Source: Patescibacteria group bacterium
GTDB lineage: Bacteria > Patescibacteriota > Patescibacteriia > UBA9570 > JAHJKD01
DNA length: 64,000 bases
Direction of reading: 5' to 3'
NCBI GenBank assembly: GCA_041660885.1
Contig: JBAZVM010000007.1
Coordinates: forward strand, 17,896 to 81,895
The notes under the pieces were generated by a model. That model made no database searches. It was not told the origin of the DNA and saw only the letters and a program-made list of their open reading frames with translations. Within the stretch, counting starts at the first letter, position 1; the number at the start of each line of letters is the position of its first letter. Below, in pieces: positions 8,562 through 55,734 of this stretch. A program made the translations under genes and the position numbers.

Positions 8562-8595
8562 GTTCCCCAAGCGCAGCATGCTGTCGCATCCGCAC

Positions 8596-9636
8596 TCAGG
8601 GCTTCTCCGCCTTCTTTTCGCGCACGTTGTCGTAGTGCGCTACCAGAAGGGGAATAAACCCGAGGTGAGCCGCGATCTCCGCGAACTCACCCATGTCTTG
8701 GAAACCATTGCGACCATTCCCGTTGGCCGCAACAGTAACCACCGCTTCCCACACACAACCCGGAAGCCAGTTGGCCTTATAACCGGGAAGGGCGGGACTA
8801 AAAGCGAACCCAGGAAGAGAGATGGCCACCTTGTACAAGTGGCACCCTCGAGCTCGAACGAGTTCGCACAGCCAGCTTGGAATCTGGGGGTGCGTATCGT
8901 CGAGCACTTTGGTGCCCTTCGCAAGATGTGGCACACAACTCTCGAATTGTTCACCTTCGGCGGTGAGCACGACGACCACCTGGCATTTCTCCAACCGGCT
9001 GGGGTCGGAGGTGCGAGTGACGCCGCCGTCGTACTGTTCTTCTTTGAAACGCTGATCGAGGGCTACGATGTTCTGGTAGCCCAACTCCTTGAGCCGCTCG
9101 ATCAACCGAGAACCAGAGTAACCACCCCCACCAACCACCGCCAGTTGTTTCATGCGGTGGATCTCGTGGCGTGCATATACCATGTGCACGCCCTGAGAAA
9201 TGGTGTGGATGGTTCCTCGAACGCCGTCCACGAATGGATGGGCGTTCATATCGTGTCCGTGCCGCGCCAAAATACCCGGCATGCGCCCGGCAATGGCCAC
9301 CTTGGTCTCCGAAGAGATTCGGGCAGCCGTATACCGAAGCGCACCGTACAGACGCGCCGCCTCAGAGGGCTCCGCCTCCGCCTGCTGTGTGGAGATCATT
9401 GTCCCGAAGTAGAGACCTCCCCCGATGAACCCAAGCGGGAACACCGTTGGAAAGATCCTTTTCGCGATGCCGATCGTCCACGCAGGGAAGTAGCCCTTTG
9501 TGTCTTCGGGTGTACCGGGGTACACCACGAAGATGAAGGGCCACTGCCGCTGTCGGAAGATGTGCCACCCCAGCAGGAGGGTGACCATCTGTACGAACCG
9601 GAACATGGTCCGGTTCAGACGCCGTAGCGTCCTCAT
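8596..9636 (-). CDS. NAD(P)-binding oxidoreductase, acyl-ACP-reductase / shikimate-DH-like family (GC-rich island 1)
   Basis: 346 aa. Rossmann motif VVGGGGYSGSRLIERLKELGY. N-terminal FIFVVYPGTPEDTKGYFP and the overall layout resemble cyanobacterial acyl-ACP reductase-type proteins (from memory, not searched). Hydrophobic N-terminus. SD GGAGGTG lies 4 nt before the ATG. The antisense 349-aa track ORF is rejected. Confidence 0.6.
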   Translation of the reverse strand: MRTLRRLNRTMFRFVQMVTLLLGWHIFRQRQWPFIFVVYPGTPEDTKGYFPAWTIGIAKRIFPTVFPLGFIGGGLYFGTMISTQQAEAEPSEAARLYGALRYTAARISSETKVAIAGRMPGILARHGHDMNAHPFVDGVRGTIHTISQGVHMVYARHEIHRMKQLAVVGGGGYSGSRLIERLKELGYQNIVALDQRFKEEQYDGGVTRTSDPSRLEKCQVVVVLTAEGEQFESCVPHLAKGTKVLDDTHPQIPSWLCELVRARGCHLYKVAISLPGFAFSPALPGYKANWLPGCVWEAVVTVAANGNGRNGFQDMGEFAEIAAHLGFIPLLVAHYDNVREKKAEKP

Positions 9637-14999: not shown

Positions 15000-15033
15000 A
15001 TTTCTCTTATTTTTTTCAATTCTTCCACAGCTT

Positions 15034-15127
15034 TTTTAAGACGGCGCTATTATTTATAATCTCTATTTTAACCAATATATACAAGCTTTTTCTTAAATAT
15101 TTGTTTATTTTTAGAGACGGCGCTGGT
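15034..15127 (+). promoter_or_regulatory. pair of 7-4-7 palindromes (locus 2), second abuts the -35 of the cassette promoter
   Basis: Sites at 15034-15051 (TTTTAAGACGGCGCTATT) and 15110-15127 (TTTAGAGACGGCGCTGGT). A third half-like copy TTGACGGCTCT lies at 15131-15141. Confidence 0.55.
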
Positions 15128-15230: not shown

Positions 15231-15917
15231 ATGTTGCGCTCGTTCTTCGACACCATCATCTGCCTCGCGCTCCTCAGCGCCTGCGCCCCGACCGACACCG
15301 ACAACCAGGAGCCTCTCGAGGACACCGACAACAACGAGTACACCTACACCAACGAGCCGGCCATCGAGTCCTACCCGCTCAACCTCTCGGACAACGACTA
15401 CGGCCCCGCCCTCGACGAGGAGGATCTCTACCTCATCGAGCAGGTCTACGGCGACATGTCCAAGGAGGAGTGGGAGATGCTCCTCGACGACCTCGCAGAG
15501 CTGACCGAGGAAGAGCTGCAGGAGTGGCTGGCCATCCTCGCCGAGGATCTCAGCGAAAACTCCACCATGAAAATTGCCTCCTGCTCCGGCTACTACGGCA
15601 GCCGCATCGGCTACGGCTGGTTCCCCTACTCGAGCACCTCCACCTACCGCAACCTCTGGACCACCAACTGCTACTTCCGCGGCGCGCAGTGCGGCAAGGA
15701 CTACATCGCAAGCTTCTGGATGGGCCCGGACTACCGTGGCGACCAGAGCGACCTCGTGGCTTATGCCTCAACCACCTCGGCACGGCTCTATCTGTTCTAC
15801 AGAGGAGGATACTCGGGGGAAATCTATCAGGGCGGATCGTACTACAACTTTTACGCCTGCTGGCCATGGGAAATTGGCGGTCTCATCGACAAGGCCCAGC
15901 TCAAGCAGATCTACTGA
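15231..15917 (+). CDS. lipoprotein, acidic linker + Cys/Tyr/Gly-rich C-terminal domain (GC-rich island 3)
   Basis: 228 aa with lipobox LLSAC. Codons end almost exclusively in C/G. SD-like AAGGAAA lies 8 nt upstream. Overlapping alternate-frame track ORFs are rejected. Confidence 0.7.
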   Translation: MLRSFFDTIICLALLSACAPTDTDNQEPLEDTDNNEYTYTNEPAIESYPLNLSDNDYGPALDEEDLYLIEQVYGDMSKEEWEMLLDDLAELTEEELQEWLAILAEDLSENSTMKIASCSGYYGSRIGYGWFPYSSTSTYRNLWTTNCYFRGAQCGKDYIASFWMGPDYRGDQSDLVAYASTTSARLYLFYRGGYSGEIYQGGSYYNFYACWPWEIGGLIDKAQLKQIY

Positions 15918-15937
15918 TGATTCTGAAGATCAACGAG

Positions 15938-15991
15938 AAACGCAGGGGTAAAGAGAAGTGCTTAAACTTTACTTCTTTGCCTCTGCGTTCC
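15938..15991 (+). terminator. long bulged hairpin with conserved loop, copy A
   Basis: AAACGCAGGGGTAAAGAGAAGTGCTTAAACTTTACTTCTTTGCCTCTGCGTTCC. Near-identical to copy B (21924-21978) and related to copy C (23008-23056). Confidence 0.55.
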
Positions 15992-16012: not shown

Positions 16013-16059
16013 TTGACATTATTTATAATTTTGTTAGCATACCTATGTATTCTAGGTAT
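16013..16059 (+). promoter_or_regulatory. promoter + putative PadR operator (copy 1)
   Basis: TTGACA (16013-18), 16 nt, TAGCAT (16035-40), overlapped by the inverted repeat ATACCTA-n7-TAGGTAT (16039-16059). About 50 nt match the padR upstream region with 4 differences. Confidence 0.55.
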
Positions 16060-16080
16060 TAATAAATAATTAAAATTATT

Positions 16081-17025
16081 ATGCACAAAGAAATTAAAAA
16101 AGATGAACGGAAGGATGGAAGCATAAAAAAAATATTTAAAATTTTATTAAATATTTTTTCCATTGCCCTCATTTTTTATTGTTTATTGGCAACAATTTTA
16201 ATCTGGTTGCTTGATAAACAAATTATCTCTTCAGTAATTAACATTACTAAAACATCCCCTGCTTTTGTCATTATTATGCCAAAAATGCTAATTGAATTGT
16301 TATTTTTAATTATACCGCTAACTATCTTTCAATTATTTGATATTGTTATATGGTTCTGGTTTATAGGCATAATTCTGTTTATTATACTTGGTTTAACCTG
16401 CTTTTCTTTCATTAAAACCATTATAAAGAATAAAAAAGAGAATAAATTAACATTCATCAATTTTCCTTGGATTAAATTAACTTTGGCGGTCTGGTTAATG
16501 AGCATTTTATTTTTTGGGTCAACGGGAACACCATCTCTAAGATGGAGCCAGCCGGTTATAAAAGTCTCTCGAAATATAGAAGTAACTCAATTTGGTCCTA
16601 TATATAATTTTGTTAAATATACTAATCGTGATGACGGCTTTTTCAAATATTCAATCAATATAAATATAGATAATAAATTTAGTGTGCAGCAGATAAAAAA
16701 TTCCAATAAAATTTCTTTATATAATATTATTAATGGATCAAAACTTAAGAAAAATAATAATTCTACGGCAATAGCAGAATATTCGGGAGATGAAACATTG
16801 CCAGCCGACATTAAGTGCTATGCCAATAATAATACTCAAAATAATTATATATACCTAAAAAACAGATGCAATGAATTATGGTATAAAGAAAAACTAATAT
16901 TTAAAACTAAAGAATGGCCTGTTTGGGTAAAACGAGTCGAAATAAATAATGATAATACCAAGCTTTTAATTCATATTTATCCCGGATATGTTACTCCCGA
17001 ATCTGTATTTTTAGTCACACTATAA
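16081..17025 (+). CDS. membrane protein (N-terminal TM bundle + Asn-rich extracytoplasmic domain)
   Basis: 314 aa, very AT-rich, with several predicted TM helices. Confidence 0.55.
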   Translation: MHKEIKKDERKDGSIKKIFKILLNIFSIALIFYCLLATILIWLLDKQIISSVINITKTSPAFVIIMPKMLIELLFLIIPLTIFQLFDIVIWFWFIGIILFIILGLTCFSFIKTIIKNKKENKLTFINFPWIKLTLAVWLMSILFFGSTGTPSLRWSQPVIKVSRNIEVTQFGPIYNFVKYTNRDDGFFKYSININIDNKFSVQQIKNSNKISLYNIINGSKLKKNNNSTAIAEYSGDETLPADIKCYANNNTQNNYIYLKNRCNELWYKEKLIFKTKEWPVWVKRVEINNDNTKLLIHIYPGYVTPESVFLVTL

Positions 17026-17032
17026 TTGTAAT

Positions 17033-17368
17033 ATGAAAATTATCGTTCTTAAATCAATTATTACAATCATTTGTTCTTTTTTTAGCGGGTTAATAATGTT
17101 TATATTACCAAGCCACTTTATACCCATATCTCCGGATAAATGGTACGACGATCCTTTTATATTCATACTATTTGGCATGATACTTGGGGCATTAATAGGA
17201 TGGTGGCTGAGTGATAAAAATATTTTGCGAGCTGCTATTGGAATTTTTTTGTATTTGATTGTCATATTTCTATCTTTTAATACTTTTACCAGTACCTTAG
17301 GATATGTATTATCTTTGCTTGCTTTAATTTCAATCGCGGTTTTTGTAGGTATTGCCCAGAAAAAATAA
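17033..17368 (+). CDS. small membrane protein
   Basis: 111 aa, about 4 TM helices, 7 nt after the previous stop. Confidence 0.5.
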   Translation: MKIIVLKSIITIICSFFSGLIMFILPSHFIPISPDKWYDDPFIFILFGMILGALIGWWLSDKNILRAAIGIFLYLIVIFLSFNTFTSTLGYVLSLLALISIAVFVGIAQKK

Positions 17369-17375
17369 TATTAAT

Positions 17376-17422
17376 TTGACATAATTTTTATTTTTGCTAA
17401 CATACCTATGTATTCTAGGTAT
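17376..17422 (+). promoter_or_regulatory. promoter + putative PadR operator (copy 2, autoregulatory)
   Basis: TTGACA (17376-81), 16 nt, TAACAT (17398-403), and the inverted repeat ATACCTA-n7-TAGGTAT (17402-17422). Confidence 0.55.
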
Positions 17423-17444
17423 TATCAAATAATTAAGCAAAAAT

Positions 17445-17762
17445 ATGCTAAATAAAGAACTGCTAAAAGGCTTCTCCCCCATTATCATCCTCTCCGTTTT
17501 AAGCGATGAAGCAAAATACGGGTATCAAATTGTGAAAGACATTAAAAAGAAAAGCGACAAATCATTAAACATCGCCGAAGGTACGCTTTACCCGCTTTTA
17601 CACAAGTTGGAAAAAGAAAAAATGCTTTACTCTTTTTGGCAAGAAGCCGGTGGCAGGAAAAGAAAATATTACGCGCTTTCGGCCAAGGGAAAAAAAGCAT
17701 TAAAAACGCAAAAGAACGACTGGCAATTATTTTTAAAAACCATGCATCAGGTTATCGATTAA
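17445..17762 (+). CDS. PadR family transcriptional regulator
   Basis: 105 aa. ILSVLSDEAKYGYQIVKDIKKKS...IAEGTLYPLLHKLEKEKML...RKYYALSAKGKKAL is the typical PadR winged helix. Confidence 0.85.
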   Translation: MLNKELLKGFSPIIILSVLSDEAKYGYQIVKDIKKKSDKSLNIAEGTLYPLLHKLEKEKMLYSFWQEAGGRKRKYYALSAKGKKALKTQKNDWQLFLKTMHQVID

Positions 17763-17767
17763 TTTTT

Positions 17768-18946
17768 ATGTTTTTATATAATCTTTGGCAAAAAACATTC
17801 TTGCCGGAAATAGATGATGAACTGGACGCTCATTTAAGCGAAGCCATGGATTTTTATTTAGAGCAAGGAGTTGATAAAAAAGAAGCCCATAAAAAAGCCC
17901 TGGCAGATTTCGGGGATCGTTCTTTGGTTATCAAGCAATTATTAAAAGAAAATATTTCATCTTATTATAATTTCTTGGCAACGATTTCTTTTTTATTGTG
18001 CGGCGTTATATTTATTGCCGGTTTTATTTTTTCTCATTCGGATTTTCTCATTAACGCCTTTTTTCTAAAATTTATATATATTTGGGCCATTTTCGCTTTA
18101 ATGCTGATCGGCCTGTATTATGTTAAATTTATTAATAATTTTTGGGGCGCTTTTAAAAATAAAACTTTGCTGGCGATTTTTTCTTTTATATTTATTTATA
18201 ACTTTATTATTGTTGTTTTTTATGATATTGATGCCATAGAAATAATAATGCAAAACACCCTTCTTCTAACGCCATTGTTAGCGTTGGCTTTCATCGGTAA
18301 AAAATATTCAAAACAATATCTATTCAGATTAGAAAAAATTATCTTTGTTATCATTACTCTTTGCACGGTTGCTCAAAAATCCGTTCTTAGCAGCTTGGGC
18401 AGTATTAAATGTTTATTCATAACGCCGGATAAATTATCTTCCGGCGCTTCTTCTTTTTCTTCATGCCAGCAATTATCTTTTTTCAGTTGGAATCTTTTGC
18501 CGTTTTGGTTAATCGCAGGGGCTTCTATAGGAATGCTTCTATTTTTTCTTTTTAATTATTTAAAAAGCAAACAAAACATAATAAACAAAATCTTTATCGG
18601 CTTAACCAGCACAGCCATGATTGTCTGCCCCATATTTCTTTTTGACAGCAATAACTACCATAAAGTGGAAATCATTAATTGGCAGCCGGAGATTATTCAA
18701 GCTTACCGCGATATCTTAGGCCGAGATCCGGAAGAGAAAGACATGGCTTTTTACGCTGAACATGAGACTTATTTATACATGGACAGAATCAAAGACACTT
18801 TATATCAATCTCAAGAAAGAGAAATAAAAATTAATCTGATTTATCAAAAAATATTAAAAAGATCGCCCAGCGAAGAGGAGCTAAGCAGATATATAGAAAA
18901 TAGAATGAGTATTAAAGAAATTAGAAACGAACTGCGAAATTTATGA
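17768..18946 (+). CDS. PadR-associated membrane protein (N-terminal permease-prefix-like helix, multi-TM core, C-terminal DUF4214-like repeats)
   Basis: I place the start at ATG 17768 (MFLYNLWQKTFLPEIDDELDAHLSEAMDFY). The track start 17636 overlaps padR in another frame. The C-terminus IIQAYRDILGRDPEEKDMAFY / IYQKILKRSPSEEELSRY resembles DUF4214. Confidence 0.6.
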   Translation: MFLYNLWQKTFLPEIDDELDAHLSEAMDFYLEQGVDKKEAHKKALADFGDRSLVIKQLLKENISSYYNFLATISFLLCGVIFIAGFIFSHSDFLINAFFLKFIYIWAIFALMLIGLYYVKFINNFWGAFKNKTLLAIFSFIFIYNFIIVVFYDIDAIEIIMQNTLLLTPLLALAFIGKKYSKQYLFRLEKIIFVIITLCTVAQKSVLSSLGSIKCLFITPDKLSSGASSFSSCQQLSFFSWNLLPFWLIAGASIGMLLFFLFNYLKSKQNIINKIFIGLTSTAMIVCPIFLFDSNNYHKVEIINWQPEIIQAYRDILGRDPEEKDMAFYAEHETYLYMDRIKDTLYQSQEREIKINLIYQKILKRSPSEEELSRYIENRMSIKEIRNELRNL

Positions 18947-20088
18947 AGTATGCTAAATATATTATTACATGTTCTTTCCTGATAATCTGCTTGCCTTTTT
19001 TATCCAAAGCTGAAGAGACTAATGCTATTGTCTCCTTTATCCCCCAAGAAATCGACGACCAAATAATTTACCCCTCCCGTTTTGTCATTCCTGAAGTAAA
19101 AACTTTTCATTACTTATCTTACGACTCTGTTAAGATTAATCCCGCTTGGGCGAATAAAGGTTATTATTTTGAAATATGGAATGATCAGAATCGTCCCCTG
19201 CCGGATTATAAAGCGAGAAAGCTGGAAACCGATATCATTGATTTAAGCCGCGTTGATGCCACGCAGACAAAAGCCATCCGCATAGTGATATTCATTCCGG
19301 ATAATAAAGAAGCGCTGGCTCCGGGCGATTTTGCTTTTAGCTGGCAATCGGGTTTTGATTGGCGCTTGTTGGTTTTTACAATATTCACCAGCCTACTGAT
19401 AATATTAATAATAATTTTTTCTATTTATTATCGCCTTAAGCCTAAAGAGATTTTAAAGCTCACAAAAAAATTGAGTTTCAGAGGCAATATAGAAACCGAT
19501 TCTAAAAAGCAAATAATTTTATTGATTTGGATAATAATAATTTTTGCGGGCATTTATGGGGTGGCTTTGGGTTATTTTATGGGAGGAATACAAATACTCT
19601 ATGTTCTGATCAAACTGCCGCTTCTATTCATTGGATCTTTATTCATTTCCTTTATTACCGCTTATGTTTTGAATTTATTATTGGGAGGAAAAGAAAAAGC
19701 AACGGCGGTATTTATCAATGCTTTAAGCGCCTTGGCCATTACTTCATTGATTCTCGCTTCGTTGGCGCCGGTATTATGGTTTATGATAATTATCCCAAAT
19801 AAGCACGACATTATAGTTTTTATTAATGTTTTATTTTTCGGCATTGCCGGTTTGATTGGAGCTTTATTTTTCTATAAACAAAGCCGTAATAAAAATATAC
19901 TGGGTTTCCTGCTGTGGCTGTTTTTATATGGATTAGTGGCTCTGCAATTATCTTGGTTGCTGCGCCCTTGGGTGGGATTAATGGAAAATGTGGATATAGC
20001 CATTCCCTTTTTGCGCCTTTACGATGGTAATGTGTTTGTGGAAATATTCAATATAATAACCCGCGCGGGAAGCGGGCACGCAATTTAA
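18943..20088 (+). CDS. membrane protein: signal peptide + ~120-aa outer domain + 6-7 TM C-terminal domain
   Basis: 381 aa with ATGA overlap to the upstream gene. The C-terminal TM domain looks paralogous to 20104..20703. Confidence 0.6.
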   Translation: MKYAKYIITCSFLIICLPFLSKAEETNAIVSFIPQEIDDQIIYPSRFVIPEVKTFHYLSYDSVKINPAWANKGYYFEIWNDQNRPLPDYKARKLETDIIDLSRVDATQTKAIRIVIFIPDNKEALAPGDFAFSWQSGFDWRLLVFTIFTSLLIILIIIFSIYYRLKPKEILKLTKKLSFRGNIETDSKKQIILLIWIIIIFAGIYGVALGYFMGGIQILYVLIKLPLLFIGSLFISFITAYVLNLLLGGKEKATAVFINALSALAITSLILASLAPVLWFMIIIPNKHDIIVFINVLFFGIAGLIGALFFYKQSRNKNILGFLLWLFLYGLVALQLSWLLRPWVGLMENVDIAIPFLRLYDGNVFVEIFNIITRAGSGHAI

Positions 20089-20103
20089 TTAATTAATATA
20101 TTT

Positions 20104-20703
20104 ATGAAAACATCAATCATTAAAACATTACTAAAAAACAAACAAGAAATCTACGAGTACTTGTTTCACGAAGAACGCTGGAATAAACTGACAATAAAAT
20201 TATTGCTTATCAGTTTATTTGGCATTGCCTTCTATGGCTTGGTTATGGGAACTTATGTGGATGAGTGGCAACATTGGTTTAAGATCAGTTATAAAGCCAT
20301 TCTATTAATATACGGTTCCATTATTTTATGCGTACCCGCCTTGTATGTTTTTACCAGTATTGCCGGCTCTAATCATACTTTAAAACAAATTGTTTTTTTG
20401 CTTTTAGGCGCCTTAGCCACAGTAGGAATTGTTTTCACTGGTTTTTTACCTATAGTTTGGTTCTTCACTTTTTGTACCAAAGATATTGTTTTTATTCGCG
20501 TAATGCACGGAGCAATAATTTTCTTAAGCTTAAGCTTCGGTTTATTTTATTTTCAGCAAGGCATGAATTATCAACCAGATAAAATAAAAAAACACGGCTA
20601 TTTTGGTGTTTTATTTTTATGGATGTTAGTTTTCTCAGCGGTTCTTTTGCAAATGGCGATAAAATTATCACCTTGGTTTAACAGCTTCAAAGGTTGGTGG
20701 TAA
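20104..20703 (+). CDS. multi-pass membrane protein, paralogous to the C-terminal domain of 18943..20088
   Basis: 199 aa. Shared pattern F-G-x-YG...YV...AL...P(I/V)(V/L)WF. Confidence 0.55.
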   Translation: MKTSIIKTLLKNKQEIYEYLFHEERWNKLTIKLLLISLFGIAFYGLVMGTYVDEWQHWFKISYKAILLIYGSIILCVPALYVFTSIAGSNHTLKQIVFLLLGALATVGIVFTGFLPIVWFFTFCTKDIVFIRVMHGAIIFLSLSFGLFYFQQGMNYQPDKIKKHGYFGVLFLWMLVFSAVLLQMAIKLSPWFNSFKGWW

Positions 20704-20720
20704 AATTTTGTCCACAAGAT

Positions 20721-20800
20721 TATTGCGACGGCGCTAAAAAATATTAGTTAATAATTATGGATAAACATGAAATAATCTACTTTTTAGCGACGGCTCTGAA
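20721..20800 (+). promoter_or_regulatory. pair of 7-4-7 palindromes (locus 3), second abuts the -35 of the cassette promoter
   Basis: Sites at 20721-20738 (TATTGCGACGGCGCTAAA) and 20783-20800 (TTTAGCGACGGCTCTGAA), 62 bp apart. Confidence 0.55.
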
Positions 20801-20831: not shown

Positions 20832-21002
20832 ATAAGCAACGAATCGACAATCTAAAAGGAAAGCTCGAGGGAAAATCGGGCAAGATCCCTACCATCTTGT
20901 TTACCCGATTCTCCCTGGGGCAACCTGGGATGCTTCTGCTCCACTCTCCGGCTGTTCGGAGGGAATGGGTATTAGCATCTAGTTCATTGGAGCGAACGAA
21001 CC

Positions 21003-21899
21003 TTGAAAACGTACATCGCCATCCTCCTGAGCCTCGCGCTCACGGGCTGCGTGCCCGAGAGCACCGACGACAACACCGAGCTCGCGTTCGACACGGCCTA
21101 CGACAACACCGAGAGCGTCGCCGACGGCAACTACACCGTCACGATCTCGGAAGACGAGGCCAAGCGCAGCGCCATGTTCGGCCTCGACGAGGACATCTAC
21201 TCAGCCACTTCTACCATCGTGGGCCCCCTCCAGTACCGCAACGAGTGGATTCCCGCGTACGAGGTCACGGTCAACGGTGGAGACCACATCATCCTCCGCT
21301 ACATCGATGGGAACGACGGCACCCTGCTCCAGGACATCGACGCCTACCACGAGATCCCGACCATGAACGAGGTCGATCTGCCGGAAGACGTCATGGCGTC
21401 CTACTACACGTCCTGCCCGTCCGGCTGGCCCCTGTGCATCGCCAACCCGTCGTCCATCACCTTCTACAGCCAGAACGACCCGAGCTGGAAGTATGACCTC
21501 CTCGGCAACAGCAGCACTTCCACCATCGGCGGATACGGCTGCCTGCTCTCGAGCTACGCCATGGAGATCTGCAAGAACGGGCACGGGTGCTACACGCCCA
21601 AGCAGCTGAACGCCTACAAGACCTGCTTCTCCGGCGATCTCGTGATCAACTCCTGCATCGCCAGCAAGGTCGGTGCCTCCTACTCCACCATCAGCCTGGC
21701 CTCGCTCTGGGGCAAGATCGCCTCCGGTGTTCCCGTGGTGGTCTACGGCAAGTCCTCCTGCATGGGCGGCAGCTACCACGCCCAGATGATCTGGGGCCAC
21801 GACGGCTCCCGCTACTGGACCAAGGACCCCTGGTACGACTGGACGAACCAGGACCAGGCCATGTGCGTGTCGTCGCCGAGCTATCGCGTCATCCACTAG
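21003..21899 (+). CDS. lipoprotein with PepSY-like domain and C-terminal papain-fold (C39-like/CHAP-like) cysteine peptidase domain (GC-rich island 4)
   Basis: 298 aa, TTG start, lipobox LALTGC. PepSY-like segment AYEVTVNGGDHIILRYIDGNDGTLL. Motif YSQNDPSWKY...IGGYGCLLSSYAM (candidate Cys) and later GGSYHAQMIWGHDG (candidate His). Codons end almost exclusively in C/G. Confidence 0.65.
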   Translation: MKTYIAILLSLALTGCVPESTDDNTELAFDTAYDNTESVADGNYTVTISEDEAKRSAMFGLDEDIYSATSTIVGPLQYRNEWIPAYEVTVNGGDHIILRYIDGNDGTLLQDIDAYHEIPTMNEVDLPEDVMASYYTSCPSGWPLCIANPSSITFYSQNDPSWKYDLLGNSSTSTIGGYGCLLSSYAMEICKNGHGCYTPKQLNAYKTCFSGDLVINSCIASKVGASYSTISLASLWGKIASGVPVVVYGKSSCMGGSYHAQMIWGHDGSRYWTKDPWYDWTNQDQAMCVSSPSYRVIH

Positions 21900-21923
21900 A
21901 GATGCACGATATGTTCGCTCACA

Positions 21924-21978
21924 AAACGCAGGGGCAAAGGAAAGTGCTTAAAACTTTACTCCTTTGCCTCTGCGTTCC
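21924..21978 (+). terminator. long bulged hairpin with conserved loop, copy B
   Basis: AAACGCAGGGGCAAAGGAAAGTGCTTAAAACTTTACTCCTTTGCCTCTGCGTTCC. Confidence 0.55.
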
Positions 21979-55061: not shown

Positions 55062-55065
55062 AAAG

Positions 55066-55137
55066 CACCGGGTACGGGAATCGGACCCGTGTTATCTGGC
55101 TGAGAACCAGACGTCCTAGCCACTAGACGAACCCGGC
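55066..55137 (-). tRNA. tRNA-Glu (anticodon CUC), copy 1, atypical T-loop
   Basis: GCCGGGTTCGTCTAGTGGCTAGGACGTCTGGTTCTCAGCCAGATAACACGGGTCCGATTCCCGTACCCGGTG. The cloverleaf folds. The T-loop TCCGATT has C at position 55. The first acceptor pair is G-U. Confidence 0.7.
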
Positions 55138-55630: not shown

Positions 55631-55662
55631 AGTATCCTCGTTTTTTATTGGCATCATTGCCG

Positions 55663-55734
55663 CACCGAATATGGGAATCGAACCCATGCTATCTGGCTGA
55701 GAACCAGACGTCCTAGCCACTAGACGAACCCGGC
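55663..55734 (-). tRNA. tRNA-Glu (anticodon CUC), copy 2
   Basis: The 5' 45 nt are identical to copy 1. The 3' part is TAGCATGGGTTCGATTCCCATATTCGGTG, with a canonical T-loop, but the acceptor stem has three G-U pairs. Confidence 0.7.

Follow-up and report, generated by a model that had tools for sequence, protein, structure and literature searches.

Among the regulatory systems described so far, those that most resemble the one presented here are the HAAS-PadR dyads. The HAAS domain is a short N-terminal helical domain of membrane and sensor proteins that always occurs with a standalone PadR, the two having been proposed to constitute a signal relay, alternative to two-component systems; its core consists of three helices, the third of them kinked, and it bears a conserved GxP motif (PMC11237479). 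Here we describe a related cassette encoded in a 64,000-nucleotide stretch of contig JBAZVM010000007.1 (assembly GCA_041660885.1) of a Patescibacteria group bacterium; the whole stretch is called the window, and positions are counted from its first letter. The cassette belongs to a block of six genes (16013-20703; locus tags WC752_03520-03545), with g1 and g2 in a first operon and padR, g4, g5 and g6 in a second one, and each of the six proteins remains a singleton when clustered at 90% identity. With somewhat more confidence than doubt, our analysis points to an autorepressed transmembrane signaling cassette of the HAAS-PadR type, which would have gained a second target operon here.

Other PadR systems are also relevant for the comparison. 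In Listeria, experiments showed the lltR-lmo0600(DUF1700)-lmo0601 operon to be auto-repressed 100-150 fold by a repressor that acts mainly on its own operon (PMC6624303), and lftR and lftS (DUF1048) are functionally linked (PMC4517056). PadR proteins of subfamily 2 are small, of ~110 aa, with one C-terminal helix after the winged helix-turn-helix (wHTH), and the canonical PadR operator is ATGT-N8-10-ACAT (PMC3506622).

Comparison With Described Systems

As in the HAAS-PadR-like wHTH dyads (PMC11237479), in the window a small PadR is encoded immediately upstream of a protein with multiple transmembrane (TM) segments and a short N-terminus predicted to have three helices, the linkage is strict, and the logic would be the one proposed for the dyads, i.e., a membrane sensor controlling the release of PadR. 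The partner, g4, presents however a 7-TM body and a DUF4214-like tail, instead of PspC, LiaI-LiaF-TM, Toastrack, FtsX or FtsW/RodA; it has no DUF1700, DUF1129 or DUF1048 match, its GxP motif is reduced to F-G, and the cassette is joined to an unannotated pair of paralogous 5-TM proteins, to the point of fusion in one genome. The lltR operon of Listeria monocytogenes (PMC6624303) likewise places a small PadR first, followed by a HAAS-type multi-TM protein and an envelope protein, but these are DUF1700 and DUF4097/Toastrack proteins of a Firmicute host, whereas here a 7TM-DUF4214 protein precedes the 5-TM pair; furthermore, the description of that system includes no second operon with a duplicated promoter.

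The window shares a subfamily-2 PadR, about 105-116 aa long and ending in one C-terminal helix, with LmrR/lmrCD of Lactococcus lactis and bcPadR1-BC4207 of Bacillus cereus (PMC3506622, PMC4534193). In both of these, the regulator binds an inverted repeat in its own promoter and in a second one, one regulator serving two units, an arrangement which the sequence suggests here too. Their operators are ATGT-N8-10-ACAT, unlike the ATACCTA-N7-TAGGTAT of the window; moreover, LmrR is a direct drug sensor in control of an ABC transporter, whereas here there is a HAAS-type partner and no transporter was found.

We take TIGR03433 to be the acidobacterial PadR that goes with the permease-prefix, FtsX-like "ADOP" permeases, and permease-prefix domain 1 (NF038403) to be equivalent to HAAS, an equation that relies on a common FtsX-fusion example. 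The partner in the window carries the same permease-prefix domain 1 but is not FtsX-like, and TIGR03433, the best NCBIfam match of the PadR, scores 87.7 bits, under its cut-off of 101.8. What is new here is a HAAS-PadR scheme built from unnamed membrane-protein families.

A Putative Promoter-Operator Segment Present Twice

A 61-nt segment occurs upstream of both g1 and padR, the copies being 89% identical when aligned within the window (Table 1), with five differences over a 49-nt core (16013-16061 against 17376-17424). An earlier interpretation of this DNA, made from the letters alone and called here the sequence-only reading, had reported a repeat of about 50 nt with four differences; the repeat stands, and the count has to be corrected. 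Both copies have a TG-extended -10 and, as that reading had also pointed out, carry the TTGACA hexamer, the 16-nt spacer and the -10 element TAGCAT or TAACAT, together with the inverted repeat ATACCTA-n7-TAGGTAT. The latter forms a 21-nt palindrome, ATACCTATGTATTCTAGGTAT, identical at the two sites (O1 and O2), and at O1 it covers the last 2 nt of the -10 hexamer as well as the predicted transcription start (about 16046-16048). No third match exists in the 64-kb window, even at <=3 mismatches, where shuffled sequences give an expectation of 0. In turn, an Rfam scan of the window returned three tRNAs only, and no known RNA element at the palindrome. The second copy begins 8 nt past the g2 stop; the DNA that separates g2 from the padR promoter has no predicted terminator, therefore read-through is possible. 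The padR promoter is sigma-70-like. In the padR clade of the window the leader is of ~35-40 nt, with no obvious Shine-Dalgarno sequence.

The segment can be compared with related loci (numbered L001 and onwards). The two closest orthologous cassettes, L004 (PadR 73% identical) and L003 (67% identical), present ATACCTA-ATAATGC-TAGGTAT and ATACCTC-TGAATCC-GAGGTAT, respectively, in the equivalent position behind TTGACA. Both preserve the half-sites, with spacers that differ, and the variant of L003 departs from the window by a symmetric A>C/T>G change, a pattern which, taken together, is expected of the operator of a dimer. Moreover, in the 347 kb covered by the motif scan (the window plus the related loci), ATACC-N11-GGTAT is found only at four promoters, two in the window and those of L003 and L004. 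The retention of the half-sites by orthologs, their position over the -10 and the start, and their exclusive association with these promoters support that the palindrome behaves as a PadR operator, as the sequence-only reading had suggested.

In 14 distant loci, whose PadRs are about 55% identical, the padR promoter contains another conserved, partly palindromic block, TTGCATCGTATAnCGAGGTATG-n-TAGnnT. Their promoters have TTGCAT-CGTATAnCGAGGTATG-n-TAGnnT in common, the sequence further upstream being unalignable, and in three of them CATCG-N5-CGATG constitutes a perfect palindrome. The recognition helix, EGTLYPLLH(K/R)LE, is near-invariant across both operator clades, with a single P(L/I/V) variation, and no specific residue change could be tied to the operator change between the two clades. 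In this distant clade (L002, L010, L012, L020, L021, L024, L025, L027, L031) the padR mRNA is probably leaderless, because no more than 5-8 nt separate the end of the -10 (TAGGGT-like) from the start codon of padR.

Conservation of the Cassette and Origin of Its Parts

A word-indexed search gave nine relatives of g5 only, whose contigs display the order padR, ~390 aa, ~380 aa and ~200 aa. By means of BLASTP and local hidden Markov models (HMMs), the full or edge-truncated cassette was recognized in the window, L001-L004, L010-L012, L020, L021, L024, L025, L027, L029 and L031, and fragments of it in L006, L013 and L014, further loci having come from scans of metagenome and genome contigs. The arrangement padR-g4-g5-g6 is present at about 15 distinct Patescibacteria/Kerfeldbacteria loci with unrelated flanks, g6 comes after g5 at every locus that reaches beyond g5, and in 17 loci a PadR HMM match lies directly upstream of a HAAS HMM match. 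The neighborhood formed by padR, the permease-prefix gene and the paralog is co-conserved across many Patescibacteria genomes. The sequence-only reading had proposed a module of six genes, of which the padR-g4-g5-g6 part is conserved; none of the other cassette loci contains a homolog of g1 or g2, and the six-gene block is ruled out as a conserved unit. In one cassette clade, a fifth conserved gene (~262 aa, no family), missing from the window, follows g6.

A natural fusion exists as well. Directly behind padR, L018 has one open reading frame (ORF) of 785 aa, P0023, which corresponds to g4::g5: residues 11-398 resemble g4 (2e-33) and residues 426-784 resemble g5, with no signal peptide in between. 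The g4 tail and the g5 sandwich are therefore predicted to be in the same compartment and to interact.

The g5-g6 pair exists also without padR or g4, in L009/L019, L005/L028, L030 (a Planctomycetota metagenome-assembled genome, MAG) and L032 (a Jacksonbacteria MAG), and in L023 the order is padR-g5-g6, g4 being missing. This pair is the oldest part of the cassette. Pairs of the g5-g6 type were found in Patescibacteria, in one Planctomycetota MAG and in one unassigned metagenome contig, and an exhaustive profile search for the 5-TM domain (E <= 1e-3) recovered 1,477 representative clusters, taken at 50% identity, about 30 of which have the full g5 architecture.

Pfam, NCBIfam, PDB profile and Foldseek searches gave no family or fold covering the 5-TM domain. 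Yip1, SpoIIM and ABC-2 had been named as candidate folds for the membrane proteins, and none was found for g5 or g6 by Pfam, NCBIfam, PDB sequence or Foldseek searches; among their relatives, Yip1 (PF04893) matched weakly in 3 of 62 (best 1.4e-4) and in 1 of 21 at E 0.16, with no SpoIIM or ABC-2 match in either set, and the three identities were rejected. In L032 (3944-6332; Candidatus Jacksonbacteria) and L033, a Band_7/SPFH gene stands directly before a long and short 5-TM pair devoid of PadR and g4, an adjacency that may hint at a role in membrane organization or stress.

The Proteins of the padR Operon

The gene coordinates and the tight packing given in the sequence-only reading were confirmed, including the ATGA overlap at 18943-18946, and multiple hydrophobic segments are present in five of the six products, in agreement with its five membrane proteins. 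Its permease prefix and TM paralogy hold, and so, at the level of prediction, do its DUF4214-like tail and g5 outer domain.

The PadR matches Pfam PF03551 with 75.8 bits (cut-off 27) over residues 15-87, and its residues 2-103 align with solved small PadRs (5dym, 4.6e-19; LmrR 3f8b, 8.8e-14); by its size and by this end-to-end alignment it is of the subfamily-2 type.

In g4, residues 13-57 match permease-prefix domain 1 with 34.7 bits (cut-off 30), as do eight of the ten orthologs, and the three-helix, permease-prefix/HAAS-like domain spans residues about 10-61, cytoplasmic by predicted topology. F48-G49 is invariant across the ten orthologs and no Pro follows. Two invariant Cys (C215, C233) are located in a beta-hairpin loop, predicted to be outer, and the helical, DUF4214-like tail (305-392) is highly conserved among the ten orthologs; the match of the window protein to DUF4214 (PF13946), 18.5 bits, is below the cut-off of 23.2, and seven of the ten orthologs match, the best with 7.8e-6. 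The AlphaFold2 (AF2) model, built on four sequences and, in its membrane region, good only for helix count, shows seven long helices and a beta-hairpin bearing both Cys. Its confidence (pLDDT, predicted local distance difference test) is of 72-84 at the N-terminus, with helices at 2-32, 37-48 and 51-61, and of 85-90 in the tail, a helical bundle. The tail would be outside, because of the seven predicted TM helices, the positive-inside loops and the Cys pair in an outer loop. The predicted topology, with the N-terminus in and the C-terminus out, fits the fusion. Neither a PDB sequence match nor a Foldseek match was obtained for the N-terminal domain of g4, PDB 2O3L (HAAS) not being matched, and Foldseek on the tail gave weak matches to phycobilisome-linker domains only, at E >= 2.3.

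g5 begins with a signal-like N-terminus, followed by a beta-sandwich (about 24-138) predicted to be extracytoplasmic, a TM segment (140-162), a basic cytoplasmic linker, the 5-TM domain and a conserved C-terminal tail, LRPWVG...PF.R...GNVF.E. In Foldseek the sandwich drew no more than jelly-roll matches of a generic kind (E >= 0.01), and the membrane part drew none. In turn, g6 is a paralog of g5 residues 184-343 (BLASTP 2e-8, 24% identity) without the g5 C-terminal tail.

Table 1. Elements and genes of the block, in window coordinates, and the fifth gene of related loci, in the coordinates of each locus.
Feature	Position	Strand	Basis or remarks
Copy 1, promoter-operator segment	16013..16073	+	-35 TTGACA 16013-16018; TG-extended -10 TAGCAT 16035-16040
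Operator O1, ATACCTA-TGTATTC-TAGGTAT	16039..16059	.	two exact copies in window; half-sites recur upstream of orthologous padR
g1, 314 aa, about 4 N-terminal TM + 170-aa C-terminal domain	16081..17025	+	no family match
g2, 111 aa, small membrane protein, 3-4 TM	17033..17368	+	no family match; starts 7 nt after g1
Copy 2, promoter-operator segment	17376..17436	+	-35 TTGACA 17376-17381; -10 TAACAT 17398-17403
Operator O2, sequence as O1	17402..17422	.	two exact copies in window; half-sites recur upstream of orthologous padR
padR, 105 aa, small PadR subfamily-2 winged-helix repressor	17445..17762	+	PF03551, 2.6e-21
g4, 392 aa, permease-prefix/HAAS-like + 7 TM + DUF4214-like tail	17768..18946	+	NF038403; ortholog alignment; AF2
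g5, 381 aa, signal peptide/anchor + beta-sandwich + TM + linker + 5-TM + tail	18943..20088	+	sequence prediction, relatives
g6, 199 aa, short paralog of g5 5-TM domain	20104..20703	+	BLASTP to g5; synteny
Fifth gene after g6	L002 6824-7612; L011 7741-8466; L012 5428-6306; L020 7709-8623; L025 7939-8760; L031 3239-4114		

Recruitment of the First Operon

Pfam and NCBIfam scans gave no family for g1 or g2. The C-terminal 170 aa of g1, rich in Asn and Lys and with one Cys pair, are probably extracytoplasmic. The sole homolog of g1, P0180 (57% identity), is encoded on L007, a locus whose synteny with the window extends from the asparaginase gene as far as the mur and penicillin-binding protein (PBP) genes, at 76-80% nucleotide identity. 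There, P0180 belongs to an island together with three GC-rich cassettes and an AT-rich 180-aa gene, and neither g2, nor the padR cassette, nor the palindrome is present. Since this g1 homolog has no operator or cassette, g1-g2 is a lineage-specific recruit, obtained via promoter duplication. Upstream of g1, homology with L007 resumes at 16058, one base before the operator ends, and a copy of the padR promoter-operator has thus replaced the g1 promoter in the window lineage. Furthermore, the spacer of the palindrome is identical in both copies and different between species, which speaks of a recent duplication, not of convergence.

The C-terminal extension of P0180 (~155 aa) is a near-copy of the AT-rich 180-aa gene situated two cassettes upstream (L007 2640-3182, 4830-5298), therefore domain shuffling has occurred inside the L007 island.

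A Putative Signaling Circuit

In the circuit that we favor, a PadR dimer would bind the palindrome and block RNA polymerase at both promoters, the outcome being a negative feedback on its own operon and the co-regulation of g1-g2. g4 would be the sensor or transducer, with its cytoplasmic N-terminal permease-prefix/HAAS-like domain contacting PadR, while the 7-TM body and the extracytoplasmic DUF4214-like tail would report the state of the membrane or of the cell surface. A change at g4 could then release PadR from the DNA, with the repressor being either sequestered at the membrane or reconfigured. The paralogous 5-TM proteins g5 and g6 would associate as a heteromeric pair attached to g4; the outer beta-sandwich of g5 would contact the outer tail of g4, because one relative has both as a single polypeptide. 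g1 and g2 would be extra outputs in the window lineage. By analogy with HAAS-PadR systems, the purpose of such a circuit may be envelope-stress sensing, one of the roles suggested in the sequence-only reading.

A number of observations weigh against this interpretation. The window-type operator is known from three genomes only, therefore its symmetric change is a single event. Neither ATACCTA-N7-TAGGTAT nor the block of the distant clade is like the canonical ATGT-N8-10-ACAT (PMC3506622), the latter being characteristic of studied PadR members rather than of the family itself. In its N-terminal domain, g4 shows a conserved F-G in place of the GxP motif described for HAAS, and no Pfam DUF1700, DUF1129 or DUF1048 was found at E <= 0.1 in the ten g4 orthologs. 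The AF2 model of g4 is poor in its membrane part, with a pLDDT of 59 overall. Several g5 orthologs of the L002 clade are without a clear signal peptide, which makes the topology of the g5 "outer domain" less certain. Finally, L009, L005/L028, L030, L032 and L023 indicate that padR and g4 are dispensable for the g5-g6 pair.

Taking the reasoning further, g4, g5 and g6 could be one undescribed membrane complex built on the long and short 5-TM pair, which in Patescibacteria would have gained the outer beta-sandwich and the HAAS-7TM-DUF4214 sensor, with surface and membrane proteins, including g1-g2, being adjusted to host contact or to the state of the envelope. We regard this extension as speculative and rather doubtful. 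If true, the operator duplication would show a PadR regulon in the very process of growing, within a reduced genome that has only a small number of regulators.

Other Explanations

The first alternative is that of a classical PadR that senses a ligand by binding a small toxic compound, in which case g4-g6 and g1-g2 would be a device for detoxification, efflux or resistance, not a sensor. Its end-to-end alignment with LmrR-type structures and the Trp kept in the C-terminal helix (NDWQLF) would agree with this, although bcPadR1 and bcPadR2 have the Trp yet no ligand pore (PMC3506622). Known small PadRs do control transporters or membrane resistance proteins (PMC3506622, PMC4517056), and export had been proposed in the sequence-only reading; however, none of the products gave a match to transporter-family, ATPase, ABC-2, MFS or Yip1 models, the TM domains have no structural match, and the export proposal found no backing in family or fold searches, which gave no transporter, Yip1, SpoIIM or ABC-2 assignment. 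Moreover, the permease prefix strictly adjoins PadR, and PadR and g4 are found together in 17 loci, which fits a protein partner better. We consider this explanation unlikely, and we think that a role in envelope or surface maintenance is likelier than small-molecule efflux.

It has also been considered that only a strong promoter was copied, the inverted repeat being either a hairpin in the 5′ untranslated region, related to RNA stability or translation, or an element without function, with no PadR binding at all. The repeat does fold as a hairpin of 7-9 bp in all four sequences (-5.7 to -9.0 kcal/mol), the A>C/T>G change of L003 is compensatory for the hairpin too, and the repeat is unlike the canonical ATGT/ACAT PadR motif (PMC3506622). 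Nevertheless, fold z-scores are weak in three of the four (-1.05 to -1.84; L003 reaches -2.9) and the left arm begins in the -10 element (16039 against 16035-16040), in such a way that a transcript starting about 7 nt downstream would be without it. The left arm in the -10 and a predicted start inside the palindrome argue for a DNA operator rather than for an RNA hairpin; besides, the element appears only with padR-type cassettes, and perfect dyad symmetry around an unconstrained 7-nt spacer is what the operators of dimeric winged-helix proteins typically show. On these grounds the RNA explanation appears quite improbable.

That the AT-rich block is a recent mobile island (toxin/immunity, defense or phage-derived), merely silenced by PadR, is very improbable: the cassette is indeed 5-8 G+C points under its surroundings in the window and L003, is missing from the syntenic L007, i.e., an indel relative to it, and is located in a variable island with cassettes of foreign base composition on either side, but PADLOC gave 0 matches for all six proteins, there are no relatives among 2.9 million viral contigs, the surroundings of the block yielded neither an integrase or transposase nor flanking direct repeats, and in most other genomes the cassette has the G+C of its flanks and lies among housekeeping genes such as rpsB-tsf.

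Genomic Surroundings

The alternation of an AT-rich block with GC-rich cassettes, another trait noticed in the sequence-only reading, is confirmed: the block has 31.8% G+C against 41.3% in the window, with 27.1% in the first operon and 33.8% in the padR operon, while the flanking genes (15231-15917, 21003-21899) have 60-63% and a third-position G+C (GC3) of 0.88-0.94. In the first operon GC3 is 0.24-0.28, therefore its AT bias is more than an amino-acid effect.

The GC-rich flanking genes carry lipoprotein-like signals and look like repeated units (window 15231-15988, 20868-21975). Each unit ends in a hairpin of ~50 nt, ACGCAGGGGyAAAG...CTTTGCCTCTGCGT (15940-15988, 21926-21975), and a conserved hairpin leader, GGGAAAATCGGGCAAGATCCCTACCATCTTGTTTACCCGATTCTCCC (20868-20930), stands at the start of the second one. 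Three units of this kind occur in L007 (1827-2583, 3175-3726, 5314-6450), where they have this leader and hairpin too and alternate with genes that are very AT-rich; the units are ~80% identical in nucleotides between the window and L007, as are the flanks, and have no Rfam match. A 26-nt motif, TCCACA...GACGGCGCTA (77% identity), precedes both GC-rich genes (15024-15049, 20711-20736), and its second copy, 8 nt past the g6 stop, could be the point where the inserted cassette ends on its downstream side.

Four other, unrelated loci have GC-rich genes as neighbors of the PadR cassette or of the g5-g6 pair: L003 (4863-5369), L001 (4481-5913), L005 (95-868) and L002 (6265-6696). Signal- or lipoprotein-like N-termini are seen in L003, L001 (on a minus-strand ORF) and L005, and in L002 the check was of G+C only (0.63). 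One of the L001 genes, on the minus strand, resembles a lytic transglycosylase. The window contains a third GC-rich stretch (8578-9636, 59% G+C), with long overlapping ORFs of 349 aa (+) and 346 aa (-) and without the hairpin pattern. Far from the block, two tRNA-Glu(CUC) genes lie on the minus strand ~600 nt apart (55065-55137, 55662-55734), with an ORF called across the second.

Biological Significance

If the circuit were a routine autorepressed membrane-protein operon, the result would be modest. The HAAS-PadR scheme has so far been proposed from gene neighborhoods only, and the cassette offers a clean comparative-genomic operator for such a dyad, while the natural g4::g5 fusion predicts a physical complex. 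The locus would also constitute a recent example of regulon growth through the duplication of a promoter-operator, and it brings to notice a family of paired 5-TM proteins that is widespread and unannotated. The genomes of Patescibacteria are tiny and poor in regulators, their surface biology is mostly obscure, and the cassette, in which operator, repressor and membrane partner are all defined, is one of the few regulatory circuits open to direct testing in a heterologous host that these organisms offer.

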